Shown here: piece by piece, positions 1 through 59,600 of the stretch | How positions within the stretch are numbered: the stretch's first letter is position 1 | Layout: each line of letters begins with the position of its first letter | Source: Schmidtea nova | Lineage: Eukaryota | DNA length: 64,000 nt | Direction: 5' to 3' | Assembly (NCBI GenBank): GCA_044892505.1 | Contig: CM097883.1 | Span: 228,966,001 to 229,030,000, forward strand | Program-made: the position numbers and the translations under genes | Notes under the pieces: model-generated | The model's database searches: none | What the model was told of the DNA's origin: nothing | What the model saw: only the letters and a program-made list of their open reading frames with translations

Positions 1-974
1 CATACATTGAAATGGATATGCATGGGCAGCCGCACACTGGGGCAAGATAAGGTACTTAACCGCCCCTGGGAAATTAAAAACCAAATCCTTCTCACAAAAA
101 CAATAATACAAAGTGCAACTTATTCATAAAAATTCAAAACATGCTATCACAAAATTCCCGTATCACCGTTACAACTGTTTATTTAAAGTGAACTTACATT
201 ATTTTATCGGAACATAATTACGCCACATAAGATAAATTTCGCTAAATTTTAAGTGCAAATGATTTTGAAAATCTTATTTTTGGTATTTCAAAATTATTTA
301 TCGATCTTAAAGATGCAATAAACAAGTCAGGAATCAAGATTAATTTTGAGAATCCCTAAAATTAATTGGTGTTTTGCTATCTTGTCAAAATTTCTGCTGG
401 CGCCCATGTCGATATAGCTACTTTAGCAAACAAAGTCAAACTATCAGAGTTCTAATTAAAAGAAAATTAACAATTATTGTCTTGTTTAGTGTTTTAATAA
501 TAACTTTGATAAGAACCATGACTTTGGTTTGCTTTGTTTTTATCATTTTGAATAAGTCTGCTTTTTTAATGGAGCTTACAGTTTTTCTAAGATTTGTCAA
601 TCCTGACCTGGAATGGCAGATATTTGGAATTAGCTGGGTAAAGTGAAAAAGTTAAGATGTTGAACAATTTGTGATATTATTGTAACAGAATGGATGAATT
701 TCATTGCGCCCTGCCTTCCTTTGTTCAAAACACTTTTATAATTAAACTTATATGCAATCATTAAAACCTTTTCAAATATAGGTAAAAATAATTTTCCCAT
801 TCTAAACATTTTCCAGAAAATATATATTTTTATAATTGGATTTATTGGATAGATTCCAGTATATTTTACTATCTTGGAATATTAAAAATATAAATAAAAA
901 AATAATTTAAATCAATAAATAATTGTTAAAAATTAATTTGAATTTTATTTATTACAAAAACAATAAATTCATAC

Positions 975-1184
975 CCATATTTGCAATTTTATTCTTTTAT
1001 CATCTTTATATACTGTTTTCACCTTAAAATCAATGCCTACAGTAGATACAAACGCAGACGTAAAACTATCATCCGCATATCGGAATAAAAATGAAGTTTT
1101 CCCAACTGACGAATTTCCAATAATTAAAATTTTAAACATATAATCGAAATTTTGATCTGAACCAGCGTCCTTTGTAGATCCCAT
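975..1184 (-). CDS. Rab3: Rab3 small GTPase, first coding exon (rest of gene lies left of the window)
   Basis: Translates [70 protein letters not shown], the Rab3 signature. Ends at a phase-0 GTATGA donor after W, where DTAGQE would follow. Confidence 0.92.
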
Positions 1185-1532
1185 TGTGCTAATAAAAAAC
1201 AAAAGAATTGAAATCAATATTTCTTCAAGAATTAGTTTGAAGTTATTTTACTTGCTTTCTTAATTTTGGAATCGTCGTATTAAATCTGTCAAAGAATAGA
1301 TAAACTAAGTACAACTCTCATTTCGACAGTGTAAGTAAATGTATTTCTACTAAATTGAGTGTGTAAATACGATTATTGTATGTATTGCATCATGTGTGCA
1401 TCAATTTCATTTGAAGGAACAGGCTGCTCATTCAGTCATTTTCAAAGGCACACAATTTAGTTACAATCAGAGAAACAATAAATTTCCTAACCTATAATTT
1501 TGTAACAGACAATCTGTATTATCATCCCATTT

Positions 1533-6517: not shown

Positions 6518-6584
<67 letters not shown>

Positions 6585-40789: not shown

Positions 40790-42176
40790 GAAAGCTGTAA
40801 GGGGTATTTACCCTACTTTTATATAAACCTGAAATATATACATAAAATCGAATTTAATATCTTAATCTCAATAAGATTTTAATCTATTTTTTTTACGATC
40901 GATGAAACTTTAAATTTCGTATTATAGTAGAATCATTGTGCATAAGATTTACGATTCGGGATATACCAACTAAGCTTGAAATTATTTAATCCTGAATCTG
41001 TTTTTAATTATTCGACATTTCTACATATTTATAAAATAATTCAGCAATTGAGATCCAAATACTGGTAATATCGATATAAAGTGGAATTTAATTAAGATCC
41101 AATTATATACGGTGTATTATATAGATCTGGATTTGGTGAGATATCACTCGGATGTTTAATATGTAAAGCGCAAAATTACTTTAGAATACGACTTTTGAGC
41201 ATACAACCAAAGGGGACGAAATGAATATCACCGAATTCGGCAACTATCAAACAATAAATAAAGATTTTATATAAACATCGAGAATCTAATATCTTTCCGA
41301 CAACTACAATTATTTTACTAGCCATTTCAACACGATTACTATTAATTGGCTGTTGTAATATACTTTTAACGATATGCAACATGATGTTTTCTGGCAATTC
41401 GTTTCCAAGATATAATTCCGATAATAATTATATATGTAAAATTAGATAATATTTATTTCAATATAATACAATAGAACAGACTTTTGACTTAATATATGAT
41501 TGAAATATTTTTAAAAAGATCTAAATTTTTTTTATTTTTAGTGAAAGTCTTTTTAGTCAATTTTTTTTCAAATTCATCTGAATGTAGTTAATGTTTGCAT
41601 CATAATCTTCTATTTTAGGATTTTTTTAGACTTTTGTTGTGTTTTGTCATTAATTTGTTTACTGATGTTTCTCATTACAAATTTTTAATTCACGTCGTGT
41701 GCGGTGTCTGAATTATTCTGTTCTCACTATTATAATTCGTGATCAAAATTTTTATTTGTTATCTCTTAGCAAAAAAATTACGACTTAAGAGTGCTGGTGT
41801 GTTGGTTAGATTGACAACTGAGATCCTTATGATTTTATATGTTAGGGTGATCTCGCCAACATAAAAACATTTCCCCGCTGACACCCATGATGTATCCCTA
41901 ACTACTCATCATGTTGGTGCTGTGTCAACGTTGTGAAATGACAAGGCAGGTGAGCAACCTTTCGGCTACTATTCCCTTGTTTATTCACGGGTCCACCACT
42001 ACCGATAGAAGGTGTCTGTGGCTTTCTTTCGGTCCCACTTATGCTCTTTACTTTGCTCTAGGGTTGATTCAATGTTATTACATCTGCGGCTTTAAATGAA
42101 TCCGAGTTTTAGTTATATTCCATTCTCAGTCATTCCACAAACAAACGAGACAAGTCAAATCATTCATTTTATACAT

Positions 42177-42776
42177 TTATTTGTAGTTCAACAATACAGA
42201 GGGTCGGATTACATTTAGTAGTTCTTGCTCGGATAGACCACTGAGCAAGTCTACCTCTATTCCTACGCGATCTGCATAGGCGCGTCTTTCCCTGCGCTTT
42301 TTCGCTCCTAAGCGATTCCGTCTCTTTGTGCGTTGTGAGCCTGCGGGAATTGTATTTGTCACTGTAGTAGCCGTGGCTATGGTCGATGCATTCTCTGTTT
42401 GGGTGCTCGTAGTCACCGCTATCGTGTCTATCCATCGATTAAAGGTGCTAGCCCTGATTACTGGGCGTAGTTGTTCGGTGATGAAGTCGCGGGTCGATGC
42501 CTTCAAATAATTCGCCAACTCCAATTTCAGGGCTGCAATCTCTCTGGCATGTTCCTCAGCTACTCGTTCTGCCCTGTACCTAGCCTGCAGGATGGACTTA
42601 ACCCGCTCTGGGTTAAACCAGGTAGTCTTAATCCGCTGATGCTCCTCATTCAGCTGCCTTAATCGATTCTCCAGCACCCGTGCGCGCGCCTTGTGTTCTC
42701 GCGCCTCTTGCTTGAAGTCTCTGCCCTTGGGTTCCGTCATGTCTGTAAATATATCATTAATGTTAGTATATGTCAT
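42177..42776 (-). CDS. LTR-region ORF, 199 aa: coiled coil, Thr-rich linker, Arg/Lys-rich basic stretch
   Basis: Intact ORF with QRTKRRNRLGAKKRRERR; AATAAA overlaps the stop codon. Confidence 0.7.
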   Translation of the reverse strand: MTYTNINDIFTDMTEPKGRDFKQEAREHKARARVLENRLRQLNEEHQRIKTTWFNPERVKSILQARYRAERVAEEHAREIAALKLELANYLKASTRDFITEQLRPVIRASTFNRWIDTIAVTTSTQTENASTIATATTVTNTIPAGSQRTKRRNRLGAKKRRERRAYADRVGIEVDLLSGLSEQELLNVIRPSVLLNYK

Positions 42777-42931
42777 GTGTCTGATTTTTCGGTCATCCTA
42801 TCGTCATTAAACAACTCCGTTCTATCATCATATTATTTCCATGCGCTCGAAAGAAAAACAAAACAAGACCGTTTTCACACAAATACATATATTTTGTAAC
42901 TACGACAATCATTCTCTCTCGGCTGCGACCA

Positions 42932-43567
42932 TCAACTGAAGGCCCTCAAGTCCTGATCGGCAGGATGCTCGTCGCGACGAATTCCATTCTCCCAATACAT
43001 TTCTGGGGCTGGGGTCCAACTCAGCTTATCTTTGTAGATAAACACCTCCCAGAGGCGAAGCTCCTCGGACTCGGGGTGTTGTTCCACGGACACACTTCCT
43101 GGTGCATTGGAATAAGTGAAGACTTCCTCAGTGTAGCGACACCGAGGCCTGTCTAGCAGCAGGTATCCTAATTGGAAAAGAGCCCTTCCGGTCATCATTC
43201 CATTGCTCAATACCCAGCGGGGTCGTCTCTGCTCGTCGAGAAATTGGAAGAACCATCTATCGGTCCTTGGTTCGGCAGGGTCCATGGTGGACATCCAATC
43301 GGGGTCTCCTTCCCATCGTAATTGTATCGTGAAGGCGCAAGCCGGAACATCTGCGGCTGCACTCATATGGTGTCTTGTCCACCGCCGTAGGTGGCGACGC
43401 GCAGTTTCGCTAATTCTGCGTGGGGCTTCCATTTCTCCCTCGATGGTAAGGATCCTCCTTGGCCGGACGACGGAACGGATGCGTCGTGGTTTCCGGACGA
43501 CATAATCTTCCATTTTCATCTGTCGATAGGTGCTCGGACTTCTTTGATATTCTTCGGTCTTTATCAT
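42932..43567 (-). CDS. LTR-region ORF, 211 aa: Arg-rich N-terminus, Trp-rich globular C-terminus
   Basis: Intact ORF; strong splice acceptor cttcttgtcttcag 4 nt before the ATG. Confidence 0.7.
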   Translation of the reverse strand: MIKTEEYQRSPSTYRQMKMEDYVVRKPRRIRSVVRPRRILTIEGEMEAPRRISETARRHLRRWTRHHMSAAADVPACAFTIQLRWEGDPDWMSTMDPAEPRTDRWFFQFLDEQRRPRWVLSNGMMTGRALFQLGYLLLDRPRCRYTEEVFTYSNAPGSVSVEQHPESEELRLWEVFIYKDKLSWTPAPEMYWENGIRRDEHPADQDLRAFS

Positions 43568-44619
43568 TTTTCTGAAGACAAGAAGATGTGATTGTGATGA
43601 ATTTGTTAGGTGCGTGCAATTATTTATAATCGGCGACCTACTCGACTCAAGAGTAAGACTCTGTGGGTTGCCGTTGGTGTTTCAGTGTTAGATCGGTTCG
43701 ATGTTCAAGATAGTGGGTAGGTTGTATATTATCGTCATGTGGTTGAGTGTATTCACTATGTCAAGTTGCTTAACTGATTTGGCCACGCAAAAAATTCAGT
43801 TCAGTTTATGACAATCTGTATTCATTTATGATGATCACTTGATCATTTATTATATTAGAATGTCATCATTTCATAGACCATTTTGGTTTATATCTACAGC
43901 AATCATACTCACTCGCATCTCAGGTGTTATCTCCATACCTAATTTTCAATTAACAATGGTCACATCATCCGGGGAACATGTTCGACCCCTTACTCAGGTT
44001 AATTGGGTACAGATTGTGCTTGTATTATATTTCGTGGGACTATCCTTTGTACCCTTCGTGAGGCGTATTTATGTTGGGGCATCCTGTGGATTCATGGTTT
44101 TACTCCGACGCTAGCACTGTCAGCCTCTGAACTCACCTGCCTCATGTAGTGTATATCTCCATACTAACCCTTTGCACCAAACCGTCGTTACTCTACTTGA
44201 CTTCACGAACGCGGAACACTTCCTCGTCGATCAACCCGTCTTTTATGTAAACTCCTTTACTCGATGTTGTCGGGACAGATGATACGCCCTTCAATTACTT
44301 CTACCCATCCTGGGGTTATGATGACCTGAGATATCCGATGTGCCCTTCCCCCTTCCGCTTGTTAAATATTTAGAACACTTATGGTCCCGCCGCATCAGCA
44401 CCTCACAACCTAAAGATTGTGTTGCGCTGAGAGGCCCCAAGAATCCGTCAGGCTGTTAGGCCTCCGGAAAACCTTATAGATTTTATTATGGTTAGCAATT
44501 ATAATTATGAGGGTTTAAAAGACTAATACAACTTGAATTACCTTTTATTTATTTCCAAATTGGTTTCACAATGTTCTCAGTAGTCACAAACAATTCACCC
44601 TTGGTAAAGATAACATTGT

Positions 44620-44680
44620 CAAATACTGATTTGACTTCAGTATTTATACTCCACCGGTGTTGTTGGTTAGCCAATCAGCA
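44620..44680 (-). promoter_or_regulatory. Candidate LTR promoter
   Basis: ATTGG/CCAAT box 44671-44675, TATAAATA 44648-44641, TCAGT initiator-like 44629-44625 (TATA-Inr spacing slightly short). Confidence 0.5.
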
Positions 44681-45049
44681 TCGAGTATGTGTGTATGTTT
44701 GCTTCATTATTTTGTGTTGTCGGCTTTTTGCTGCCTAACTTAACTTGCCGATTTGTTTGGTTAATCATGCGGTAAGTTTTTCTTAGTCATCAATTTATTT
44801 TATTTTATTTTTGTTTTAGGTCTTTGGTGACATCCGCCCACGCGCTGTCATATTCCAATTTTATCTGCTTCGCATGAGTAAGTTTTGAAGATTTTTGTTG
44901 TTTTGATTAATATTTTATTTCTTTTAGATGTTGCCGCCTATTTTGTTACGCTTTGGTGTTGGTAATTTATTTTGTTGTTATTCTGTTGTAAATTTATTTT
45001 ATTGATTGTATATTATTTTCAGATGCTGCTCGATTTGGCTGGCCCAACA

Positions 45050-45254: not shown

Positions 45255-45779
45255 TCAGGTCCTTTCACTTGTTGACTGCATTTCGTATCGGGCTTGGATT
45301 TGTCGTAGATGGCTTCTCATTCTTTGTTGGGTTTTTGCTTCTCTTTTGGCACATCTACACATTATCATTTGTTGTTGTTTGAGGCTTCTGATTCGATATA
45401 GGGTATAGGTAATCACGATGATCAGGATGATTGTTAATATTGTCATTGTGACTATTCCGACGATGATCCATCTGTTTCGGATTTCGGATTCGATTTGGGT
45501 TTGACCTTTGATTGGCTTTAGCTGATCTTGGAATGTTTTATGGATTTCTCGGATCTTCTCGATTTGATCGAATAGGGTTTGTAAGGGTTTGCGATGATCA
45601 TGACTGATTCGCATTTGTCGGATTAATTGTTTCAAGTCTTCTCTGACTTCATTTAGTTGTTTTTCGATCTCCTGGGATATTTCATTTGACAGGGTTCTTT
45701 GAATTTCGGTTGTCGAACAGTTCATGATTGTTATGGTTAACATAGTTGTTAGGATTGGTAGGGTTTTGAGCCAGTTCAT
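45255..45779 (-). CDS. Accessory type I membrane protein, 174 aa
   Basis: Signal-peptide-like N-terminus, heptad-rich ectodomain, TM WIIVGIVTMTILTIILIIVITYTLY, basic Cys-containing tail. Confidence 0.75.
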   Translation of the reverse strand: MNWLKTLPILTTMLTITIMNCSTTEIQRTLSNEISQEIEKQLNEVREDLKQLIRQMRISHDHRKPLQTLFDQIEKIREIHKTFQDQLKPIKGQTQIESEIRNRWIIVGIVTMTILTIILIIVITYTLYRIRSLKQQQMIMCRCAKREAKTQQRMRSHLRQIQARYEMQSTSERT

Positions 45780-45852
45780 TTCTGATTATTCTACTGATTA
45801 ATACCTGTTACATCGATTTGTACATTTTTACACACGGATTTTTCGCCTCTTT

Positions 45853-47025
45853 TTACACATCCGTCTCCTCTGGTTCATGAAACCCTTCATCTTGGAGCTC
45901 CATTGGTGGTGGTGGTATAAACGGTAACCACACCACTCTGCTTCTCCACATTGCAATTTCATCTTGATACGTTCGAGAGATTTGTATCTCTTCATCTAAC
46001 AGATACTCCATATAGTCTGATTGTTCGCTCAGAGTTTCAATTTGTCTTTCCATCTCTTCCACTTTTCTCTTCATGTCTTCTACTTCTGTTGGTTCGGTTT
46101 CTACTTCTGTGGTTTCTTTCTCTGCTTTCAGGGTTATTATCTGCTGTTTCAGTTCCTCATTTTCTTTCGTCAAATTCGTTATATTCTCCTCGTAAGCTCG
46201 GTTTGATTCCGCATGTCTTTCCTTCACAGATTTCAGTTCCATTTTCTTTTGGGTCACCACCCCTTGATAACCATTTACATCTCTTTCCAGACTTTCTTTT
46301 TCCCTGATCAACTTTTGTCTTTCCGCTTCTTCTTTTTGTCTAATGCCTCGCATTTCTTCATTTATCATCTGTATTTGCCATTGCGTTTTCTTTAGTTCCT
46401 TTGCCTGTTCTCGAATAATTCGCTGTCGTTTTCGACTCCATTCCTTGTTTGTCTGTTCTTGTCGTTTTCTCTGTTCCAGTTCCTCTTTCAATTCGTCTAT
46501 CTCTTGATACAATTTCCAATCTTCGCTGTATGCTGTCTTTCTGATTATCTCTTTGGCTTCTTTATGCACTCGTTTCGACTCCATCTTCCAATGTCTCGCT
46601 TGAGCCTTGATTGCTAGTATTTTTACCTCCATCTTTTCCTCTTGTTTCTCCTGCTCTTCTCTTCGCGTTTTCATCATATTCCGGTAGTGTTCAGCTTGTT
46701 TTCTCATCAACTGATAGACCTCTTCTATCTTCAGTCGACTTCGTACATTCGTTCCTTTTAGCTTCTCTATTTGTGTTGTCAGTTGTACTATCTCTTTATT
46801 CACTTCCTCGAGTTCTAGTTGGTATAACTCCATTCGTCTCTCGCATTTTAGTTTCTCGTAAAAATTGTTCGTCATCACTTCGTGTAATTCTCTGGTTCTT
46901 TGTTCTACTTCCACTTTACATCTCCTTTCGATTTCTCTTTCGATTTCTCTTTCTATTGCTTCTTGTTCGTTTGACATCTCGTTTCTCGTTTCATCTTCGA
47001 TTACATGTGCATTTGCGTTTTCCAT
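45853..47025 (-). CDS. Accessory long coiled-coil protein, 390 aa
   Basis: E/K/R/Q-rich heptads throughout; ends ...PPPPMELQDEGFHEPEETDV. Confidence 0.8.
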   Translation of the reverse strand: MENANAHVIEDETRNEMSNEQEAIEREIEREIERRCKVEVEQRTRELHEVMTNNFYEKLKCERRMELYQLELEEVNKEIVQLTTQIEKLKGTNVRSRLKIEEVYQLMRKQAEHYRNMMKTRREEQEKQEEKMEVKILAIKAQARHWKMESKRVHKEAKEIIRKTAYSEDWKLYQEIDELKEELEQRKRQEQTNKEWSRKRQRIIREQAKELKKTQWQIQMINEEMRGIRQKEEAERQKLIREKESLERDVNGYQGVVTQKKMELKSVKERHAESNRAYEENITNLTKENEELKQQIITLKAEKETTEVETEPTEVEDMKRKVEEMERQIETLSEQSDYMEYLLDEEIQISRTYQDEIAMWRSRVVWLPFIPPPPMELQDEGFHEPEETDV

Positions 47026-47114
47026 TCTGTAATTTACAAATTTACACTTGTTATACTATACGTTTATTGTTGTCGTCGATTTTTACACTTTATTTACAGG
47101 GTCGTTCACTCTGA

Positions 47115-48527
47115 CTACTCTAACCATCCTTTCGTTGACTTCGTGTTCATCACTGTTGTACTTGCTTTCTTTTCGATCTCCAACTCTACATATAAGTTGT
47201 CGTCGTACAACATCTCCCACATTGTTTGGTGTGGTATGAATTTTGGTTCTCCAGTCGCTAATGAACATTCTGTGGTTGGTCTTTTGTAAGCTTCGTGCTT
47301 ACCATCAATTTTGAATACTCTCGCTATTGTTTCTTTCGAGTTTTTCACTCTCATTATAGCCTTTGTTTCTAGTGGCCATTCTAATATGTCGTCGTAACCA
47401 CCTTTACACAACGCAAAGAATAATGACACATGCGTTTCTTTTCCTGATCCATCTCCATTTGGATAAATTCTCATCCGGACTTTGTATCCGTTTTTCCACA
47501 GATAAAATGGTGGACTTGTTACCGACACTTGACTTCCTGCTTTTGCTGCTGCGAACTTGTCGTTGAAGTTCTTGATTTTCCATACATATGGTGCAACAGG
47601 TAAACTCTCGATATCCTCTGTATCTCGTATCCACATTTGGTGTCGTACATTTACTTCCTTTACTAATGTCTCTATGACTTTGATTTTCTCCATCATTTTC
47701 TCTCTGGTGAGCTCGAATTGTTCTCTTGTTTCTAGTAATAACTCCGTCATTATTCTCTGAGATTCGATTTCTTTTCCCAGCTTCTGTATGGTTTGTTCCA
47801 TTCCGTTCAAATTTGCTGTTAACATCTCGGCGTGTTGTACTGTTTCCGTTTCCAAATGCTCTTTCATCTCTTTGCTCGTTTTCTTTACTACACATCCTTG
47901 TTTACTCCATACGCACTTTCTTGGTCTTGATTCGCATTGTTCCCAATGTTCTCTCAACATCACTTCTTCTCCGGTTCCGCAATTACTTGGACAAATTCCT
48001 CGGAATTTTCCGCACACTTTTTCTTCTGCTACGTTGAGATGTTCTGTTTCGATTACTTCTCTCGTCTCTCTTTGTTCGCAGTATTGACACTCTATTATCT
48101 CTGCTTTGCACTCGTCCTTGTGATTTTTCGACTGCTTGATGGTTATCGTCTGTTGACACTTTTCACATATCGCTTTCTTGTTTTCGCATTTCTCCAGATG
48201 TTGTCTTAGCTCGATTATTTGTCCTTTCCATTCACATGGTTGGTTTATACACTCTGTTTTTATCTTCCAGATCTCCTTTTGTATTGCTTTGTCTGGTTTT
48301 GTTTCGTTGATCAGTAGTTTATCGTCACACTCTGGACACTTTCTTGTCTCACTTTCACTGATTATTTGCAATATACACTTGGTGCACATCCTGCATCCAC
48401 ATTCCGTTTGCCTCGGTTTTAACAGTAGATTTTTACACTTTACACACGTCACATTTACTCCCCATTGTCGATTTTCTCCTCTTAGAGTTTCGATCGTTTG
48501 GTAATCTGCTTCGCTTTCTGCTCTCAT
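47115..48527 (-). CDS. Intronless TRAF-family protein (RING, TRAF Zn fingers, coiled coil, MATH), 470 aa
   Basis: RING CVKC..PRQTECGCRMCTKC..CPEC; CINQPCEWKG; MATH YVWKIKNF..SPPFY..GYKVRMRIYPNGDGSGKETHVSLFFALCKGGYDDILEWP. Confidence 0.95.
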   Translation of the reverse strand: MRAESEADYQTIETLRGENRQWGVNVTCVKCKNLLLKPRQTECGCRMCTKCILQIISESETRKCPECDDKLLINETKPDKAIQKEIWKIKTECINQPCEWKGQIIELRQHLEKCENKKAICEKCQQTITIKQSKNHKDECKAEIIECQYCEQRETREVIETEHLNVAEEKVCGKFRGICPSNCGTGEEVMLREHWEQCESRPRKCVWSKQGCVVKKTSKEMKEHLETETVQHAEMLTANLNGMEQTIQKLGKEIESQRIMTELLLETREQFELTREKMMEKIKVIETLVKEVNVRHQMWIRDTEDIESLPVAPYVWKIKNFNDKFAAAKAGSQVSVTSPPFYLWKNGYKVRMRIYPNGDGSGKETHVSLFFALCKGGYDDILEWPLETKAIMRVKNSKETIARVFKIDGKHEAYKRPTTECSLATGEPKFIPHQTMWEMLYDDNLYVELEIEKKASTTVMNTKSTKGWLE

Positions 48528-48617
48528 TCTACAACAATATTTACATCAATTTCCCCATATTTTTGATTTTTTCTGGTTCTTTATTTACACGTATTTACAC
48601 AGTTTTCCGCTTATTCA

Positions 48618-48968
48618 CTATACATCCTCAGTTGAATCTGGCTCTGGATACACGTCTATCTCATTTACAATCCAGCTCGTCCAACTATCCGGTATTTCTT
48701 CCTCTTCATGTCTCGTTAATCGGTCAATTTCCTCTGCTTGCCAGTTGTTCACTTCATTTAATGTTCGGTTCTCGTTCTGTAATTCGTTTATCTGTATTTG
48801 TTGGATCTCGATTTTGTTCATTGCTTCGCAATTACAGTTATAACTCTCGGTTAATAATTGCGTTTTTGCCGTCAACTGGCTCTGTAATTCATTTACTGTT
48901 CTGGCTAGCAGGTCACATTGTACTTTCCATCTTGTCATCGTTGACATCTCGATATTTTCTTGGTTCAT
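48618..48968 (-). CDS. Accessory short coiled-coil protein, 116 aa
   Basis: Heptad repeat plus acidic Trp-containing tail ending EPDSTEDV. Confidence 0.65.
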   Translation of the reverse strand: MNQENIEMSTMTRWKVQCDLLARTVNELQSQLTAKTQLLTESYNCNCEAMNKIEIQQIQINELQNENRTLNEVNNWQAEEIDRLTRHEEEEIPDSWTSWIVNEIDVYPEPDSTEDV

Positions 48969-49091
48969 TGTTTTTCTAGATTATATACATCATTCTCTTT
49001 TTTCTGTTTTTATGTTTTATAATATTTATACCCATACGTATACGGTTATGCATTGGTTTTTACACTATTATTTACACTCATATTCCACCCT

Positions 49092-52000
49092 CTATACCAC
49101 TATTACTGGTTTTCCTTCGTACAGTTCCTCGTCCTCGATCTGTACCCACATCTCTTCGTGTTTTGATCGTCTTTTTAGCTCTTCTCGTACTTCTTTTGGT
49201 AGTTTTATGTTGTAATTCGTGACCTTTACCTCTGGCCATTTTACTGCTATGGTCTTATTTCTCATGCCATATCTCCAACATACTATCATGATCGTTATCA
49301 GTGGTATACACGCTATGAATACTCCCATGCTGATTAATCCCATTACTGTTTTTCCAATGCTCATTCTTGGAGTCTCACTTTGGTTTATCATCACGCCGTA
49401 TTGACCTTTCCATTCTGCTTCCCATTGTTCATATTGTTGTTGTCTCCGTCTGACTTCTTCGATCACTTTCTCTGGTTCCCATTTTTCTTGTCGATTTGGT
49501 ATTGTTTCTTCCTTCTCGTTTTGTTCTCTCTTCTGACTCAATTCTCGGAATTCTAACTTTTTGATTCTCCTCTTTATCGGTGTGTAGTAGGTTTCGCACC
49601 TTTCTTGTGGATTTCCTTGTGTATCCACTTCTTCAATTGCACACACTACGTATTCTGCATTTGTTTTCAACTTCCTCATTTCTACCTCGATTGTTTCCTT
49701 TTTGTCATTTGATGTCTTTTGACAGTTTCGTGGAGACTTTCCCATACTGTTTGGCATTAATGTCCAACAGATTTCTAGGACCTTTTTATGGATCTTCCAT
49801 ATTATCAGAGTCGTTGATTCTGGTTCGTTTTCTATTGTCGTCCCTTCTGTTGTCTGTTGAGTTCCTTGACTGTTGGTTGTCGTGGTTCTTCTTGACTTTC
49901 TTTTCTTCTGCCGACTTCCTCCCATTTCGATCGTTCTTGTACCGTTAATTTGCTCTGGCGTCTTGTACAGTCTGCACTCCAGGCTTCTTTGTATTACTTC
50001 TCTTATTCTTCGGATTACGCAAATTTCGTAAGCTTGTCCGACTTCGAATCCATTTAGTTGAAACGGGATTCCTCGTTCTCTCGTTTTACATTGCGGTATT
50101 ATGTTGTTGGTCGATACTCCGATGTATTTTCTCCAACACATCCCAATTGTTCTCCGACCAATGTTTTTTATCTCCACTGTTACTACTTCATTTGCAATCG
50201 TTTCTTGATCTTGTTTCTTTCTTTTTGGGAACTCAATTATCTCCTTTGTTTGGAACACTTTACACTCGCTTGTTCCTGGTCTGTTTCCGTTTGCTGCTTT
50301 TTCCATGAGACATAGTTCACATTTTCTATCTGTATCTATTTCGGTTATCTCAATTTCTTCGTTTGTCTCTGCTTCTCGACTTTCTCTTGTTTCGCTGATT
50401 CCAATTACCTCATTGTTTCGTCCCCAACATCTTCCATTCGTTGTTCGTTGATCTTGGATGTTTACTAACGTCATCACGCTGATATCTATGTCCTCCATGA
50501 TTCTCTTAATGAGGATTAATATTAATGCTACACATATCAATTCTGGTTGGAATGTTAATTTGCCCGCTGGATTTTTGGTTATTCTTTCTTTCTCTGTTCG
50601 GTTTCTGATTCCCTCTTCAACTTCGGTTTGATTCTTCCCTTTCTCTGATTCCACTTCTGTTCTTCTCGTTGTCTCTTCGCTTCTTTTCTCAATCCATTTC
50701 TGTATCTTCAGCGCTTCCGTTGCTTTGTATAATTGGCATGCAGTTACTTGAGGTGCTTTTGGTTCTCCTCTCTGCTTTATTGCGCATATTATGTATGACT
50801 TTTCTTTCTCCAATCCTTTGATTTGGATGACGTCTCGCTTCAAATCTGACAATATACACTTCAGCGTATCGTTTTTCTTCAGGTTTTCTTTCCAGCATAT
50901 TCTTTCGTATACTTCATTTCCTCTGATTATCTCTAGCGTGACGTATTGTTTCTTGGCTTCTCCTTGTCCGATGATTGTTATCAATATCGCAATACACAAC
51001 ATTTCCGGTCTCAAAAGTAGACTTCCTGTTCGTTTTCCATAGTTTGTACGTTCGTCTTTTGTTCCATTGTTTTCTCGTTCTTCTGCTTCTCTTTTCTTGT
51101 CGTTTCTCGTTGGCTTCGGTTCTTCTTGTCTTTCTTTTTCATTATCCTCCGTTCTTTTGTTGTCATTGTCTTCGTTGCTCTCTTCGTTGTTGCTTTTGTC
51201 GTCGAAATCTCTGTAACCACCCCCTGGTCCTTTCGAAATGTCGTCCTCGACATTAATTTCTTCAATCAATCTTTCATACGCTTGAACCGCGAGTGTGCTA
51301 GACTCGAATTCACGTATTTCCATCTCCTTGGATGGTTCTATGTCTTTTAATCTACTTTGCTTGATCGCTTCTTTGGCATTTGCCCATTCATTCACATATT
51401 TTCTGAACAAGTCTTTCCATCTTCCTATTCGTTCCTGTTCCTTTGGATTGTTCGTGAATTTCAAATCTCTTCTCTTCAGGAATTCTTCTACTATCTCTGG
51501 CTTTTTGTGTCTCAATAACGCGCTTCTGATACACCAATTCTGATTCTGTTCCATATTGTCATTGATCTTGAATGCCGGTTCCTTGGTGATCGGATTCACC
51601 CATGTTAGTAATGCTCTCGTTTTCTCTATGTCGTGTATCATTACTGTTAGACTGAAGTTCTTTACGTTATTCACCAGGTATTCGATATCGTCTTGCTTCT
51701 TGATGGACTTTATGAACTTGATCATCTCGAAGTTGTTCCACTGTATTGCGATGTCTATGATGGAATTATTCTTTCCATTTTTCCCTTCGATTTTTGCTCC
51801 TGCTTCGTATAATTCATTTAGCACTTTAAAGTTCGTCTTCTTTCTTGCTGCGATTATCATGATTGTATCTCCGTTATCATCAACCGTATTCATGTCCGCT
51901 TCGCATTTGACCATTGCTTTCGTTATTTCTAGCACTTCGTTTTCTTTCTTTCGACGTAATGCCCAGTGTATCGGCAATCTCCCATCCTTTGATAATAGGA

Positions 52001-55000
52001 ATGCCACTGGCATTTGATTCTTGATTGTGTCCATATCACTCTCGTTATAATCTCCTTGTGCGTATCTGTGCACTTTCTCTGTAATCGCTCCTAGTATCTC
52101 CAACGAGTTTTTGTTCTCTCTGAATTCGGATAATTTTTCCTGTGCTTTTGCTACGATTGCGTTTAATCTCTCTTGATAATCAGCTTTTGCGTTGAACAAC
52201 ACTGCTTTGCTTCTTATTCGCGTTTGCATCTGTTTCATTCGTTGGTCTTGATACACTGCTTGTCTGAAGAATTGTCCATACTTCAATGCTTCCACCAGCT
52301 CTTTATATCGCTTGCTTATTTCTTTGTGCTGCTTTTGGATGTCATAGAAATGTTCGAAGCTCATATCCGGATTCCATTGCTTATCACACCATTTCTTGAT
52401 TAATCCGAATAGTTCTTTCTTCCTGTCTTCTAACTTGTATTCTCTTGGGTTTTCACTAACCCGTAGCGTATCTCTCGCTACTAACACTGCAAGGGTTTTT
52501 GGATCGTATGTTACTTCTAATAGATGTTTCAGTAACGCATTTTCTCCCCTTGTGAACACTTCATTACAATCTATGACCCACGAATCTCCTTCTGGTCGTT
52601 TCCACTTTAGCAATATTCTCCAGGTTTTACTGTTCTTTACCCCGATTGCTTGTTTCATGATTGATCCTCTGGTTAGTTCATCGATTTCCCACGTGGCATT
52701 TTCCGTAATATACTTCAGTATTCGGTGATTCGCTCTGTCAATTGCATGATTCAAGAATGTTCGTCCTTCTTTATCTTTTGCCATCCAATTCGATCTGGTG
52801 TTTCCGAATAGCTTGATTATTTCATCGTTTCTTCCGTGAATCGTCATCATCATAAGTGGAGTGATTCCTTCCCAATTCACTTTGTCAATTTCTCCTCCAC
52901 TTTCGAGTATCATTTCTACGATCTCCTTCACTTTCTCGTTTCCACTGTGCTTGATTACATTATGTAACGCGGTATTACCATCTTTGTCTTGTAGATTCAA
53001 TGTCTGAGGGATCTCCTCTAGCAGCGTCCTTGTTATTGGATGTGCTGTTCTATCCTTCGCATAGTCCATTACATTCTTTCGAACTTCTGACAGTATATTG
53101 AAATCGTGCCACCATCTCCATTCCGGTATAATTTCTCTGGTTTTCTTTGCCAGTTCTTTGATGTCTATTATCTCCCTTCGGTTGTCCTCTAGACTTGTTT
53201 GCGGCTTTTGTTGTACTCGCAACATATTAATTCTCGCCGTCTGTGATCTTGTCATCACCCGTTTCTCTGGTGATAGAGTTGCTGTCTTTGGTATTTTCCT
53301 GCATCGACATGCATTCACGTATATTGGTCTTACCAATGGATTGTTCACCAATCGTACTCGCACATTATTTTCATTTACTGTTGTTATTTCATATGGCCCT
53401 TTGTCTGGTCGTTGGAGTTTCTTGACCGTACCGGGTATTATCTCTGGTGTTTCGATTATCACCCAATCTCCAACTTTTAAATCATGTGCTTTCACATTCT
53501 TTTTCTGATCATGCAGATCCTTGTAACTCTCTTGATAGAACTTGATGTTTAGTTCCGCCGTTTTCCAGATTTCTTGCATTCTTTCTTTGAACTTTGTCAC
53601 GTAATCGTCAACCTCCATATACTGCGATAGTGGTGGTTGGTACTCTAAATCAATCGGTAAGTTGCAATCTCTTCCGTACATCAGTTGGAATGGACTTAGC
53701 TTTGTTGTCGCATGTATTGACATTCTGTATGCCATTAAACACAAGTTTATATACTCGTCCCAGTCAGTTTGGTGTTTACTGACGTAATTCGACAACATGC
53801 GTATCAATGTTCCATTGAACCTTTCTGTTTGTCCGTTCGTTTGTGGATGGTATGGGGATGTTCGTAATTTCGCAATTCGGAAGTAATTCGTAACTTCGTC
53901 TAATATTTCACTCATGAAATTTGTTCCTTGATCCGTTAGGATTTTCTTTGGTGTTCCGTATCTGCAGCATATCTCTTCCACCAATATTCTCGCGACTGTT
54001 TTCGCTTTTTGATCCGGTATTGCGAACGCTTCTGGGAACTTTGTTAGATAGTCCGTGACTACTAATATGTATTGATTTCCCTTCAAACTTTCCGGCAATG
54101 GTCCAACTACATCCATTGCTATCGTCGCCATAGGTTCTGCAGGTATTGGCATAGGTTTCAGTGGTGTTTTCCACTTTGTTCCGACGTTCTTTCTTGTCGC
54201 ACAGGTTAAGCAGTTCTTTATCCATTCCTTCACCTCATCTTCCATGGTTGGCCAAAAATACTTTTGTCTCAATCTCCCGATTGTCTTTTTTGCTGACATA
54301 TGTCCGCCTAATTTTCCGTCATGATATTGAGTCATGATTTCCTTTCGTCTGTTCGCAGGTAAGCACATCAATCTCCTTTCTCCATCCTGTATCAATAACC
54401 ATCCTTTTTCCATCACGTATCGGTGCTGATATTTCTGCATATGTTCGCGCAACGTTTGGTTCTTGCCGAATATCTCTATTTCCCTTTCTTTCAGATACTT
54501 GCTGATCAATCCCAACTCCTCGTCTTCGAGTTGATCTTTCCTTAATTCGCTGAAATCCAAATCCTCCGCTATTAATGCACATATTTTTAGAGCATTCAGG
54601 TTCACCAATTCTGGAAATGTAAACCTTGACATGCAATCTGCGTTTGCATTTGCTTTTCCTGCTTTAAACTTTATGAATGGCGAGTATTCTTGTAACTGCA
54701 TCGCCCAACGCATCAATCTACTTGATGATTCTTTGTGTTGACCTAACCATACCAATGGTTGATGATCCGTCGTGATATATATTTCATGACCCCACAGTAG
54801 GTACTTGAAATGCTTGATTGCCAATATTATTGCATAGGCTTCTCTTTCTGTGACTGAGTAATTCCTTTCATGCTTCCTGAACGTTCGACTATAATATCCG
54901 ATTACTCTCTCTTTGCCTTCTTCATCAAATTGGCCTAGTACTGCTCCTGCTGCGTATCCACTTGCATCTGTTGCCAACAGAAATGGCTTCTTAAAATCTG

Positions 55001-56408
55001 GATGGACCAGTATTGGTGCTGTAATCAGCTTATCTCGTAATGTTTCAAATGCTGCTTGCTGTTCTATTCCCCATATAAACGACACATCTTGTCTTACCAA
55101 TTCTTGCATTGGTTTTGATATTCCTGCATAGTCCTTGATAAACTTTCGATAATATCCACACAATCCCAAAGATTCTTGTATTTGAGTCACTGTCTTTGGT
55201 GGTGGACATTCTTTAACTTTCTCGATATTCCTTGGATCTGGTTCTTTTCCTTTTGCCGATACAATGTGACCTAAGAATGTCACTTTCTCTTTTGCCCAAT
55301 CGCACTTTGACGGCTTCAATTTCAGTTTCCATTGCCTTAATTTCACGAACACATTTCTGATGTCTTGTAAGTGATCTTCGAATGTTGCGGAGTAGATCAA
55401 TAGATCGTCGATGTACACCATGCATTGTTTTATGCCATGTGTTACGAAATTCATGCATCTCTGGAATGATGCTGGCGCGTTTGTTAACCCAAACGGCATT
55501 TTCTTGAATTGGTACAGATCTCGTCCGATTGTAAATGCTGTCTTCTCTTTATCCTCATCTTTCATTTTGATCTGCCAATATCCACTTTTTAAATCCAGTG
55601 ACGTGAAATAAGCTGCTCCTTGTAACGTCAATAACATTTCATTTATGTCTGGCAGTGGGTACGTATCTCTTTTCGTAACTGCGTTCAATCGTCTGTAATC
55701 GATACAGAATCTTTGAGTTCCATCCTTCTTTTTCACCATCACCACTGGGAATTGCCAGGGTGAGCAACTAGGTTCGATGACCTCTGCATCTAACATCTTT
55801 TGTACCTCTTCTTCTGCCACTGCTTTTTGAGCTTCTGCCAATTTATATGGTCGTAATGCGATTGGCGTTTCGTCCGTCAACGGTATCGTATGTAATGTTA
55901 CATCACATGTTCCTAAATCCAGATCTGATGCTGCGAATATATCTTTATATTCCATCAACAGTTTCTGTAACTGTACTTTTTGTCGTTCGTCTAACAACAC
56001 ACTGTCGATTTCCCATGGTAACTCGCCTTTGCCTTTCTCATTCTTGTCTGGTATTTCGATTTCGGACATGGGTGTCAATTTACCCAATCTCTCATTCTCG
56101 TATATTATCTTGTCCTCTTCGTCGAAATTTACCAGATTGATCGGTATTTCTCCTTTTTGGTTTATCGTAACCAATTCTCTTGCCATTGGTAATTCTTTCT
56201 TTGCTTCGAACTTCTTACTTGGTTCGAATACCATATCTCCCTTTATTGTTGAATCGATCTTGACATAACACATCATTTCATGTCTCGCTGGCACTACTAT
56301 TTGTTCCGCACTTGCCACTTTAACTTTCATTCTGCAGATTTTTCCTGTTCTATCTTTTAGCTTCATTGCTCCTAGATCAATTACGATCTCCTTGAACAGG
56401 TCTGGCAT
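49092..56408 (-). CDS. pol: Pol ORF, 2438 aa: PR C-terminus, RT, RNase H, IN, ankyrin repeats, FN3-like repeats, TM
   Basis: RT (RFCIDYRRLN, LDLKSGYWQI, MPFGLTNAP, YIDD at 55404-55415); RNase H (ATDASG, NYSVTERE, TDHQPL); IN (H-H-C-C, MDVVGP, TDQGTNF, YHPQTNGQTER, GPY); about 1,350 extra aa after IN. Confidence 0.97.
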   Translation of the reverse strand: MPDLFKEIVIDLGAMKLKDRTGKICRMKVKVASAEQIVVPARHEMMCYVKIDSTIKGDMVFEPSKKFEAKKELPMARELVTINQKGEIPINLVNFDEEDKIIYENERLGKLTPMSEIEIPDKNEKGKGELPWEIDSVLLDERQKVQLQKLLMEYKDIFAASDLDLGTCDVTLHTIPLTDETPIALRPYKLAEAQKAVAEEEVQKMLDAEVIEPSCSPWQFPVVMVKKKDGTQRFCIDYRRLNAVTKRDTYPLPDINEMLLTLQGAAYFTSLDLKSGYWQIKMKDEDKEKTAFTIGRDLYQFKKMPFGLTNAPASFQRCMNFVTHGIKQCMVYIDDLLIYSATFEDHLQDIRNVFVKLRQWKLKLKPSKCDWAKEKVTFLGHIVSAKGKEPDPRNIEKVKECPPPKTVTQIQESLGLCGYYRKFIKDYAGISKPMQELVRQDVSFIWGIEQQAAFETLRDKLITAPILVHPDFKKPFLLATDASGYAAGAVLGQFDEEGKERVIGYYSRTFRKHERNYSVTEREAYAIILAIKHFKYLLWGHEIYITTDHQPLVWLGQHKESSSRLMRWAMQLQEYSPFIKFKAGKANANADCMSRFTFPELVNLNALKICALIAEDLDFSELRKDQLEDEELGLISKYLKEREIEIFGKNQTLREHMQKYQHRYVMEKGWLLIQDGERRLMCLPANRRKEIMTQYHDGKLGGHMSAKKTIGRLRQKYFWPTMEDEVKEWIKNCLTCATRKNVGTKWKTPLKPMPIPAEPMATIAMDVVGPLPESLKGNQYILVVTDYLTKFPEAFAIPDQKAKTVARILVEEICCRYGTPKKILTDQGTNFMSEILDEVTNYFRIAKLRTSPYHPQTNGQTERFNGTLIRMLSNYVSKHQTDWDEYINLCLMAYRMSIHATTKLSPFQLMYGRDCNLPIDLEYQPPLSQYMEVDDYVTKFKERMQEIWKTAELNIKFYQESYKDLHDQKKNVKAHDLKVGDWVIIETPEIIPGTVKKLQRPDKGPYEITTVNENNVRVRLVNNPLVRPIYVNACRCRKIPKTATLSPEKRVMTRSQTARINMLRVQQKPQTSLEDNRREIIDIKELAKKTREIIPEWRWWHDFNILSEVRKNVMDYAKDRTAHPITRTLLEEIPQTLNLQDKDGNTALHNVIKHSGNEKVKEIVEMILESGGEIDKVNWEGITPLMMMTIHGRNDEIIKLFGNTRSNWMAKDKEGRTFLNHAIDRANHRILKYITENATWEIDELTRGSIMKQAIGVKNSKTWRILLKWKRPEGDSWVIDCNEVFTRGENALLKHLLEVTYDPKTLAVLVARDTLRVSENPREYKLEDRKKELFGLIKKWCDKQWNPDMSFEHFYDIQKQHKEISKRYKELVEALKYGQFFRQAVYQDQRMKQMQTRIRSKAVLFNAKADYQERLNAIVAKAQEKLSEFRENKNSLEILGAITEKVHRYAQGDYNESDMDTIKNQMPVAFLLSKDGRLPIHWALRRKKENEVLEITKAMVKCEADMNTVDDNGDTIMIIAARKKTNFKVLNELYEAGAKIEGKNGKNNSIIDIAIQWNNFEMIKFIKSIKKQDDIEYLVNNVKNFSLTVMIHDIEKTRALLTWVNPITKEPAFKINDNMEQNQNWCIRSALLRHKKPEIVEEFLKRRDLKFTNNPKEQERIGRWKDLFRKYVNEWANAKEAIKQSRLKDIEPSKEMEIREFESSTLAVQAYERLIEEINVEDDISKGPGGGYRDFDDKSNNEESNEDNDNKRTEDNEKERQEEPKPTRNDKKREAEERENNGTKDERTNYGKRTGSLLLRPEMLCIAILITIIGQGEAKKQYVTLEIIRGNEVYERICWKENLKKNDTLKCILSDLKRDVIQIKGLEKEKSYIICAIKQRGEPKAPQVTACQLYKATEALKIQKWIEKRSEETTRRTEVESEKGKNQTEVEEGIRNRTEKERITKNPAGKLTFQPELICVALILILIKRIMEDIDISVMTLVNIQDQRTTNGRCWGRNNEVIGISETRESREAETNEEIEITEIDTDRKCELCLMEKAANGNRPGTSECKVFQTKEIIEFPKRKKQDQETIANEVVTVEIKNIGRRTIGMCWRKYIGVSTNNIIPQCKTRERGIPFQLNGFEVGQAYEICVIRRIREVIQRSLECRLYKTPEQINGTRTIEMGGSRQKKRKSRRTTTTNSQGTQQTTEGTTIENEPESTTLIIWKIHKKVLEICWTLMPNSMGKSPRNCQKTSNDKKETIEVEMRKLKTNAEYVVCAIEEVDTQGNPQERCETYYTPIKRRIKKLEFRELSQKREQNEKEETIPNRQEKWEPEKVIEEVRRRQQQYEQWEAEWKGQYGVMINQSETPRMSIGKTVMGLISMGVFIACIPLITIMIVCWRYGMRNKTIAVKWPEVKVTNYNIKLPKEVREELKRRSKHEEMWVQIEDEELYEGKPVIVV
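51700..53000 (-). other. Two clusters of ankyrin repeats fused downstream of integrase
   Basis: QDKDGNTALH, VNWEGITPLM, KDKEGRTFLNHA (52700-53000); KDGRLPIHWAL, VDDNGDTIMIIAA, KNGKNNSIIDIA (51700-51990). Confidence 0.88.
53300..54340 (-). other. Integrase domain (HHCC, DD35E, GPY/F)
   Basis: YHDGKLGGHM..CLTC; IAMDVVGPL; ILTDQGTNF; QTERFN; KGPYEI. Confidence 0.95.
54680..55870 (-). other. Reverse transcriptase and RNase H domains
   Basis: Canonical Ty3/Gypsy motifs with YIDD catalytic box. Confidence 0.97.
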
Positions 56409-56690
56409 CAGGTCAGTTCCAATAATACATGGTACACTCAGCGATGGTATTACACGATGTACGTGTTGATCTCTGCACCTCGATGCTTAATTTTTACAAA
56501 CCATCTTCCGGCTACTTCTACTGTCTCTTGACTGCACGCGATTACATGTACGTTCGTCTTCTCAATTTCTCCTTGGTTTTTCTCGGGTATATAGTTAATG
56601 TCGATTGCCGAAATATTCGCGCCTGTATCGATCATTGCTTCGATTTCTCTTCCATTTATTTCTATGGTTGTTGTTAAAATCGGTCCCATA
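56370..56690 (-). other. Retroviral-type aspartic protease split across the ORF1/ORF2 junction
   Basis: IEINGREIEAMIDTGANIS (DTG at 56621-56629) in ORF1; C-terminal IPSLSVPCIIGTDL in the pol frame. Confidence 0.92.
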
Positions 56691-59600
56691 TTTGTGGACA
56701 TAACTGCTATCGTGTGCGTGTCTTCTAACGAGTTTACACTTCCACCTCGTTTTACTTTGCATCCCTCTGGAATTATCGGGTATATACTTGTCATCGGCAT
56801 CATCTGCATCATATTCGGCTTCGCTTTGTATATCGGTTCGTTATACATTGACTGAGGTGGAGCACTGTATCTCCAATTCTCAACTGCACTCTTTTCGTTA
56901 TACTGTGGAATCTGGTTTATATTCGCTTGTCCTCCTCGATCGTCATCGTCATCGTCGTCGTTACTTGAATCATCCTGCGTTCGATATCCTCTCACTCTTT
57001 CCCATAATCCTTTCCTTTCTTTCTTTAGTTGTCTTCTTGCTTGCTCGTCTTGCATTATCTTTTTGAATTTCCTTCCGACATCTTCGTTTGTTCCTTTCAT
57101 TTTTGCAAGTATCTTCAACAACCTCTTTATTCGATGTATGTCTTTTGAGTGTCCGTGTAACACCATCGTTTTCGCAAGGAATGGTAAAAATCCTACTACC
57201 ATTTTCCAATTCACTTTCTTTTCTCTCTTGTAGATGTCGAAACACGCTAACATTTGCGTTATTATCACTCTGACGATTTGTATTATCAATATAACACCCA
57301 GTATTCCCGCCATCATTTGTCCAAATATCAGGAATCTTCCCCACATTGCCTTCATCATATTTTCTGTGGCTTTCTTGAAATGTGCCGGTGACAACAACAG
57401 TTCGTAATTCGGTCCTTCTCGATAATTCGTTCCTCCCGTTATCGTTACGATATTTGACAGTAATGCTTCTCTTCTTGCCGGGAATAATATATTCTGCCTT
57501 GCTGCTTCCAGATCTTTTGGACTATAGATTCCGTTGTTTGAGACATCTACGTCACTGAACTGTCTATCCTTTGACAACTGCATTAGCTCAAATTCTCTTG
57601 GTGCTAATACTTCAGTTCTTCCTGGGAACATAACCCATTTGCCATCTGGCTTCTGATAAAGCGGTCCGTACGCGTTACTACAGTTGAATGGATTTGGTTC
57701 AAAACTTGGTGGATTGATGATTCTCGTCACCGGTTGAACATATCGTACTTTTCCTTTGTAATCGATTTCTAGTTCGTTTGTACATTGTCCAGGTTTCAAC
57801 TGCGTTGTTGCTGCTAGCGATGCGTGTGTCTTTTCACAAATGTATACATACATTGCCTCTCCAACCACTCTTCCGAAATGTCCTTCTCTCAGTGGTAATA
57901 ACGGCATCGCGCTATCTGGATTCGTAATCGCTACGGCCAACTTTGTCTTTAGTATTTCCCGATTCAGTATACAATCGTTGTTTATCAGATCATAATACAC
58001 TTTTTGCAATGAGGCTTGTCCTCTATGGAATAAGAAATCCATTTTATTATTCACATACAAGTGTAACTTGATATCCATTGTGTCGATCTTGGGTTTCGCA
58101 TTCGGCACTTCCTGCTTTGACACGTATATTCCTGGATAATTTGTTTCGTATACTGTTGTACTGCACTTAAGGGTTGCTTTCCCTTTTATGAATCTCATTC
58201 CCACATCCTGATTTGTGGTTATCAACACTGTTGGTGTGGCTCTCATCTCTATTCGTTTTTCTCTATGATCTGGTCTCAATTGTCTTTTGTTCTCTAAAGC
58301 TTCTTTGAGATGTTTTGCTCTAGCTTTGTCATCATCGTCCTCTTCCTGGAACGTTTTTCCTTGAATTTCGTCGAACTTTGCTCCTTGTAGCAGTTGTAAT
58401 TGACACTCGTTCACTTTTGGTTTGTATACCAATGTTGACATTCCCGTTTGACACATGCTCCTGTCAATTTTACACATGGATAACGTTTTCATTTCTCCTG
58501 TGGTCGGTTCGAAGAATGCTTCGTAGCTTTTCAGTTCGACTATATACGTATCCATTACCACTAAGTTGGTTGCAGGTACTCCAAATATCGGGTAGGTTTC
58601 TCCTTGACAATATCCTTCTCCTCCCGTAATCCGTCCTGCTACATAATACGTCTGCTGTAACATCATTCCTGGTTTTCCTTTTATCTTGATTTTATCTCTC
58701 GTTGTTACTTCTCCATGCTTGAATAATGCTTCACAGTCTTCTCCTTGCAACACGATTGGTTCTCTTTCTGTTCCTGGCATGACAATTGCTGAATAATGTC
58801 CTCTACCACAATAGAATGCGAATCTCGTCTTTTGTACTTTGCATTCATTCACCATTGTCTTTATGAGTTCTGCCTCTTGATACACGTGGTACCATTGTTC
58901 CTTTTTAATCTCTTTTAACTCTACTGGAGTTGCATCTTTGCATTGCTCCGTACCTCTCAATGAGTACTTTTCTCCTAACTTCATTTGATCACAATCAAAT
59001 ACTTCGAACGTTGTTACACCCTCTGTGCTTAACAACCATACTAGCATCATCATGATTATCGAGTTTAAATTCAACGTCGATCTTCCGTTTCCTTGCATCG
59101 TTTGTCTATTCTCCATTTCTCTCAATACTCCTTCGAGTTTCTTTCTCATCACGTTAGACCCTTCTTTTGTCTGGTTCTCTTTTATGAACTTTTCCCATCC
59201 TCCTTTCCTGAGGATATATGGTTCAATTTCTTTCTCGATAATCATCGCCGTATTTTTAATATGTCTTCCCATCGGACTTGACTTCGGACTTCCTCGGCTT
59301 AGCGTTAGTAAATTGTATATCGTATACGAGATTGCTACCAGATATTTGCTGTCCGTTTCTGCTCCGTTAAGTAGCCTTTTTATCAACATCGTGGTTCCTT
59401 GCCAATCCAGATGATTCGATTTTGTTTTTGCCTTTATCAATTCTGGCATAATCGGTGCTATTGCATTGTGTAGCATCCTTGCCTTTGTACTAGGTTCGTT
59501 TATCCGCCACAAATTCTTTAATTCCGGGTCAATTATTGCTAACACATCCATTATCGTTTTGGTGAGCCATTCTTCTCCTTGGCAGACTTGATTCTCTTCT

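Follow-up and report, generated by a model that had tools for sequence, protein, structure and literature searches.

Burro elements of planarians are the closest described relatives of the element analysed here, and both their build and the presence of a MATH_TRAF_C domain in Burro1/GYPSM1 of Schmidtea mediterranea are already in print (PMC6431247, accessible text). According to that text, Burro1/GYPSM1 resembles the element in our window (the whole 64-kb stretch of DNA analysed) in being a ~30-kb gypsy element with gag, env before the protease, reverse transcriptase (RT), RNase H (RH), integrase (IN) and ankyrin repeats, and in carrying MATH_TRAF_C and IAP-type cargo; its Ubl and BCL2-like stretches have putative counterparts in the window element. 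In Burro1/GYPSM1, however, MATH is described alone within the polyprotein, whereas the window element has a full TRAF as a separate ORF behind pol. Burro1/GYPSM1 also has a BIR-containing IAP, whereas the ORF located upstream of the polyprotein in the window element encodes an IAP-type RING without a BIR. A Burro-like element of Dugesia tigrina likewise bears MATH_TRAF_C on an accessory ORF, and its ORF1 of 5,140 aa equals the frame length of one sister family found here; that accessory ORF is described as upstream, whereas the one studied here lies downstream of pol. For the Dugesia tigrina accessory ORF, the accessible part of the same paper names MATH only; it mentions neither a RING nor zinc fingers, and nothing on selection, origin or copy number.

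The carrier element and its TRAF gene

The carrier is a Burro-type Ty3/gypsy element of 29,457 bp that spans window-extended positions 41792-71248; the window was extended by 20 kb of adjoining genome to reach the 5' LTR (Table 1). Its LTRs, 3,258 bp each, show 2 mismatches between them, and the GC content steps up at 41.8 kb from about 0.28 to 0.39. Pfam searches gave the order gag-env-PR-RT-RH-IN-Ank, with env (PF24664, E 2.9e-68) in frame ahead of the protease (PR) and Ank_2 repeats after the integrase. In the window copy the polyprotein falls into two frames, with the break close to the protease end, and a second copy examined has one uninterrupted frame across this region. The Ubl and BCL2-like stretches are conserved between families and had no match in Pfam or PDB sequences; both labels reflect only resemblance and position. 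The LTR contains ORFs of 199 and 211 aa (42177-42776 and 42932-43567) with no Pfam match, and its middle is highly variable among copies.

The element lies outside the exons of the host USP gene. The first-pass annotation had called this gene an intron-rich USP48; its exons are indeed widely spread, and the name comes from domain order, without a named match. Elsewhere in the window we observed a Rab-family exon (969-1247, minus strand), a Penelope-like GIY-YIG fragment (6055-6519, minus strand), a 49-bp tandem array (16263-18050) and a palindromic repeat of about 130 bp that recurs at 5400-5510, 15074-15210 and 24561-24697.

Table 1. Positions of the element, its genes and the neighbouring host gene.
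Feature	Position	Strand	Details
Multi-exon USP gene, UCH and DUSP exons	7197-27879	+	UCH/DUSP exons across 7.2-23.8 kb
Target-site duplication (TSD)	41788..41791	+	4 bp, AGAG flanking the element on both sides
3' LTR, TG...CA	41792..45049	-	3,258 bp; contains two ORFs (199 and 211 aa)
174-aa accessory ORF, hydrophobic stretches	45255..45779	-	Putative membrane protein by inspection
390-aa coiled-coil accessory ORF	45853..47025	-	Downstream of TRAF; matches found in all six families
Complete TRAF ORF	47115..48527	-	470 aa; ORF list, Pfam, AlphaFold, Foldseek
MATH/TRAF-C domain	47175..47588	-	aa 314-451; Pfam
Predicted coiled-coil helix	47619..47843	-	aa 229-303; AlphaFold model
TRAF/Sina-type zinc fingers	47844..48260	-	About aa 90-228; Pfam, ligands
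RING, C4C4 form, C45 replacing His	48327..48446	-	aa 28-67; Pfam, ligand alignment
116-aa coiled-coil accessory ORF	48618..48968	-	Immediately precedes TRAF in each of the six families
Polyprotein, second half	49092..56486	-	RT, RNase H, integrase, ankyrin repeats, Cys-containing repeats, C-terminal hydrophobic stretch
Polyprotein, first half	56450..63985	-	gag zinc knuckles, Ubl-/BCL2-like stretches, Monjiviricetes-type fusion glycoprotein, aspartyl protease
5' LTR	67991-71248 (window-extended)	-	Outside the 64-kb window

Four accessory ORFs lie downstream of the polyprotein, the TRAF being the second, and the 390-aa coiled-coil ORF is itself under purifying selection (dN/dS 0.11). The spacers between them (45780-45852, 47026-47114, 48528-48617 and 48969-49091) contain repeated TGTA(A), often AATAAA, and a YAG just ahead of the next start codon, a layout that looks like an operon resolved by splicing. 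Of 17 accessory ORFs, 15 have a YAG at most 8 bases from their start codon, compared with 25% of all ATGs, in a test that was post hoc and drew on related families; this placement suggests spliced subgenomic RNAs for the accessory ORFs. Four sequencing runs of unknown kind yielded neither splice joints nor an expression signal.

The TRAF ORF is a single open frame from its ATG, without an intron. Pfam recognised MATH_2 (PF22486, aa 314-451, E 4.7e-27; PF21355, E 2.1e-25) and Sina_ZnF (aa 192-233), together with TRAF3_RING (aa 28-67, E 1.4e-4) and zf-TRAF (aa 170-224, E 7e-5), both below the family cut-off, although the RING and zinc-finger ligands are complete. The RING reads C-G-C at 43-45, which places Cys at both 43 and 45. 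The AlphaFold model (pLDDT 80.9 from a 12-row alignment) comprises a helix at 229-303 and a beta-sandwich; its top Foldseek matches were TRAF1/2/3 domains, and the N-terminal RING-zinc finger part matched TRAF6 with an rmsd of 1.8 across 145 columns. The ORF encodes a full TRAF-family protein with RING, zinc fingers, coiled coil and MATH. At 47-49 kb the plus-strand AT skew is -0.36 to -0.43, as in the remainder of the element, and the frame, the domains and this skew bear out the initial description of a complete intronless TRAF with the strand bias of a retroelement.

Copies, selection and sister families

Genome-wide, 117 sites match a MATH-domain 22-mer exactly (reversed control, 0). All 90 genome matches that were scored are 96-100% identical to the element TRAF at the amino acid level, four of them with a stop. 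Element sequence was found on both flanks at 29 of 29 other loci, one of which has an internal deletion, and in 10 of 10 further copies the LTR pairs are 99.8-99.97% identical. The TRAF copies diverge at about 16% of synonymous sites, which together with the near-identical LTR pairs indicates that many lineages inserted recently.

Selection was estimated by simple codon counting with no transition-bias model. Pairwise dN/dS was 0.080 among 30 copies chosen by protein score, a choice that biases the value low, and 0.091 among 29 copies chosen by upstream DNA (a 30th was dropped for poor cover). Across 48 distinct other copies, N/S was 0.11 for shared variants versus 0.22 for private ones (Fisher p 0.003), and all five single-base stop variants were private. 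Broken down by part, the shared-variant ratio was 0.09 in the RING, 0.14 in the zinc fingers and 0.06 in both the coil and MATH, and the last 18 codons form an unconstrained tail with a ratio of about 1. The eight RING ligands are unchanged in 47-48 of the 48 copies, the single exception being a stop at C48. On one to three copies, N/S was 0.00-0.04 for RT, RNase H, integrase and env, versus 0.13 for the TRAF. The TRAF is a fixed gene of the element family, under purifying selection in all four domains. Its presence with element flanks at all 29 loci and its dN/dS of 0.08-0.09 are the opposite of the outcomes that the first-pass annotation had held to speak against such cargo, namely an ORF missing from other copies or inserted with its own TSD and poly(A), and neutral evolution.

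A neutral passenger, derived from a recently retroposed host mRNA, would fit the lack of introns and the stops present in 5 of the 48 other copies. It would not, however, be expected to show a dN/dS of about 0.09, nor to recur in six families down to 35% identity while lacking a close host gene (best 33-34%), and around the ORF we saw neither a separate poly(A) nor a separate TSD. Selection and synteny refute this explanation, which we regard as having almost no chance of being correct.

Searches with host and database TRAFs recovered five further dispersed TRAF-bearing families, named by frame length; their TRAFs are 53% (F469), 51-52% (F459), 47% (F483), 46% (F473) and 35% (F492) identical to that of the window copy. 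Among the 15 copies with wide context, a match to the small coiled-coil ORF stands directly ahead of the TRAF in 14, the exception being one F459 copy, and a match to the long coiled-coil ORF stands behind it in all 15. The protease and Ubl stretches rank the six families in about the same order as the TRAF does. Exact 22-mer matches number 1,093 for F492, 87 for F469 and 12 for F473; in the four families counted, which leave F459 and F483 aside, element-borne TRAF matches amount to at least 1,309.

Two other env-bearing giant families, represented by one copy each, have no TRAF, so the gene is dispensable for that way of life. At L154-L161 there are two gypsy families of 16-17 kb that have 3,400-codon polyproteins and env before the protease but no TRAF. 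In a Burro1-like family of this genome, MATH stands by itself within a 4,706-codon frame, the domain being 43% identical. The env of the window element (57206-59005) is 97% identical to that of F459 (L281-L284, L297-L300), against 52-76% for gag, protease and TRAF, and these identities make a recent env exchange between the two families likely.

The most numerous TRAF-bearing family found is F492 (loci L207 and L198-L201). None of the six copies examined, of 22-28 kb, has a gag core, env, RT, RNase H or integrase, and their LTR pairs are 99.8-99.98% alike in five copies and less so in the sixth. The family retains the IAP-type RING, Ubl, protease, ankyrin repeats and TRAF, and directly behind the TRAF it has a BIR+RING IAP ORF whose BIR looks, by eye, like the caspase-binding type. 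When 20 copies were chosen by position, 19 had RING-Ubl-protease without RT between and one gave no match; an unrelated RT (34%) lies farther out in one of the 19. The 1,093 matches could still include a rare complete form of the family. The F492 TRAF has an N/S of 0.14 (0.08 for shared variants), with a stop in 5 and a frameshift in 4 of 20 copies. A second deletion form was seen in one F483 copy (L293-L296), in which gag, env and protease are kept and RT, RNase H and integrase are gone.

These families bear on the idea that the TRAF serves replication directly, either by ubiquitinating a silencing or restriction factor or by scaffolding particles together with the flanking coiled-coil ORFs. 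The order of coiled-coil ORF, TRAF and coiled-coil ORF, fixed in six families, is consistent with such a role, and the remodelled groove described below implies new partners. F492, however, a family with 1,093 matches, keeps its TRAF beside an IAP although gag core, env, RT and integrase are missing from the copies examined, and giant families without a TRAF thrive; we consider a direct role in replication quite improbable.

The same F492 copies, as a very numerous signalling-only derivative, could instead suggest that element TRAFs supply a function that the animal needs, a mutualism as with the Burro1 IAP, which is reported, second-hand in the accessible text of PMC13465017, to protect stem cells. 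Selection is nevertheless visible in variants that young, dispersed insertions share, which places it on the replicating lineages, and no old fixed single copy was seen, which leaves domestication by the host doubtful. It is compatible with, and not exclusive of, the explanation that we prefer below.

Probable origin among planarian TRAFs

The final TRAF tree (LG+G4, 32 rows) joined the six element TRAFs with the database protein P0018 in one group (87/88), sister to two unnamed metagenome proteins (95/94) and nested in a planarian group with Dendrocoelum and Dugesia TRAFs (94/96). An earlier mixture-model tree grouped four element families (92/87), and in a MATH-only tree the Burro1-like domain joined the element TRAFs, with P0002 inside (91/86). 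At 87/88 the element group is not strongly supported, being neither shown nor rejected, and the EKRQT fraction, 0.37-0.45 in element TRAFs versus 0.26-0.33, is a shared bias that can pull rows together. The same location in six families and the single nested group point to one old capture, and capture from a planarian host TRAF is the simplest and the likely reading of the sequences. The nesting among planarian TRAFs agrees with the host origin that the initial account had assigned to the cargo.

A donor search that started from P0050 turned up no close host gene, the best value being 31-37%. The database proteins P0018, P0045 and P0065 have an element-like make-up and were placed in the element group; these entries could be TRAFs carried by elements but catalogued as ordinary proteins. 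Word-seeded protein searches returned 5 and 16 distant matches only, and a full HMMER scan recovered the planarian relatives.

The host TRAF survey covered the 30 best MATH loci, with 150 of 2,419 Pfam candidates scored. These 30 loci had no match to the element except one LTR-end fragment, and most of them belong to a tandem cluster (C2:405-455 Mb, L073-L092) in which RING and MATH lie on separate exons. Host TRAFs with RING to MATH in a single frame were found at L063, L067, L068, L069, L071 and L082; their GC content is 0.23-0.33 and their make-up host-like, and the wider flanks place them outside Burro elements, L067 and L068 being close to one. The tree pairs L067 with Dugesia japonica TRAF2-like A (ADF47429.1; 99/94), which points to a dugesiid planarian as the host. 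Element and host TRAFs are 27-37% identical, with a best value of 33-34% for the window family, and the CGC RING is present in all host TRAFs compared and in named Dendrocoelum TRAFs.

Two clues in the first-pass annotation did not withstand this survey. The CGC RING had been noted as a departure from the canonical CGH; as an element innovation it is rejected, since the host and Dendrocoelum TRAFs carry it and planarian TRAFs as a rule have CGC. The lack of introns had been read as capture from a host mRNA, yet host TRAFs of the same clade are single-frame too. Because host TRAFs share both the single frame and the CGC motif, mRNA and DNA capture are indistinguishable.

TRAF copies in this genome thus have two sources, the host tandem cluster and the element-borne copies, and the latter outnumber the host TRAF genes seen. 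The suggestion that element mobility inflates TRAF counts holds for genomic copies, given the 1,309 or more matches, while the host tandem expansion is also real; because near-identical copies collapse in transcriptomes, the excess in published counts may come to no more than a handful. In the accessible portions of earlier work, 121 planarian MATH domains are reported (PMC6109357), a preprint on a RING/U-box screen leaves the meaning of the planarian TRAF expansion unresolved, and expanded gypsy families are left unidentified (PMC11410931).

Proposed function and comparison with known TRAFs

The receptor groove of the element TRAF is partly conserved. The Arg and Tyr of hot spot 3 are retained as R353 and Y355 in 48 of 48 other copies, corresponding to TRAF2 hot spot 3 (PMC6125299, accessible text). 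In an alignment to TRAF3/5, the serine finger position is occupied by H411-E412-A413 and the pocket Cys by E427, each in 48 of 48 other copies. The hot spot 2 serine triad and the hot spot 1 Cys of TRAF1/2/3/5 are absent from the element TRAF, and host TRAFs have S-x-C or S-x-S at the serine finger.

An altered groove could belong to a decoy that joins trimers of host TRAFs, or takes up their partners, and thereby blocks signalling: its serine finger and one residue of the pocket are unlike those of TRAF1/2/3/5 and of host TRAFs, and no part of the protein is more conserved than the coil and MATH. Dominant-negative TRAFs, however, are classically RING-less, whereas here the RING and zinc-finger ligands are invariant, under purifying selection and retained in all six families, which makes a decoy unlikely in our view. 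Invariant RING ligands combined with a remodelled groove favour an active rewired adaptor; of the decoy-or-rewiring idea put forward at first, the rewiring part is the one that we favour.

Our preferred reading, to which we assign a probability of about 0.6, is an accessory TRAF acquired in a single capture that works as a rewired adaptor and ubiquitin ligase and keeps the element's host cell alive. The protein would be translated from a spliced subgenomic RNA, with the YAG just ahead of its start codon as a candidate signal, and would trimerise via its coiled coil and MATH domain. The remodelled groove would engage new partners in place of the canonical Px(Q/E)E receptor tails, and the RING would confer ubiquitin ligase activity. 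Together with the IAP-type RING, the BCL2-like stretch and the ankyrin repeats, and in F492 with a full BIR-RING IAP, the TRAF may hold back the death that stress or immunity triggers in the cell transcribing the element, and selection on the element lineage would then operate via host-cell survival.

We infer this pro-survival role from the neighbouring cargo, which is anti-apoptotic in kind, and from data on other species. According to the accessible texts, knocking down host TRAFs is lethal to cells and to animals (PMC7586133), and BURRO1 RNAi brought no rescue of smedwi-2 animals (PMC8532177). A broader and decidedly tentative picture is that Burro elements carry a modular kit of captured cell-death and immune-signalling genes, and that F492, with about 1,100 copies, is a satellite family which lost its own gag core, env, RT and integrase but retains TRAF and IAP under selection; it would pay for borrowed replication via stem-cell survival, and most TRAF copies of the animal would be element-borne and shape its regeneration. 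Each element family can be separated from host genes by RNAi, which makes a role in stem-cell survival testable. An element lineage that keeps a whole signalling E3, and a derivative that has signalling cargo but no replication enzymes, are both relevant to the ways in which selfish elements exploit or benefit the cells that house them.

Compared with planarian host TRAFs (Smed-TRAF-2A/B, ADF47429.1 and Dendrocoelum lacteum TRAF-2/-4/-5), the element TRAF shares the domain order, the CGC RING, the zinc-finger insert and, with several of them, a single coding frame. It differs in its 27-37% identity, A-rich codons, EKRQT-rich make-up and remodelled groove, and in occurring as hundreds of dispersed copies, whereas host TRAFs occur as one to three. 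With vertebrate TRAF2/3/5 it has the fold and architecture in common, and the equivalents of R393/Y395 and of F410, F447 and F456 are kept or conservatively changed. The vertebrate proteins, by contrast, have a C3HC4 RING where the element has C4C4, identity is 25-27%, and the serine triad and the C469 equivalent are absent from the element TRAF.

In the literature covered, which extended to neither Grohme 2018 nor Lee 2026, we found for Burro no account of a complete TRAF architecture, its selection, origin or copy numbers, nor of an RT-less TRAF-IAP family or a single origin from the CGC clade. Measured against these known systems, TRAF-domain cargo in Burro was already described, and the full architecture, the selection on it, its probable single origin and the RT-less TRAF-IAP family are apparently new.
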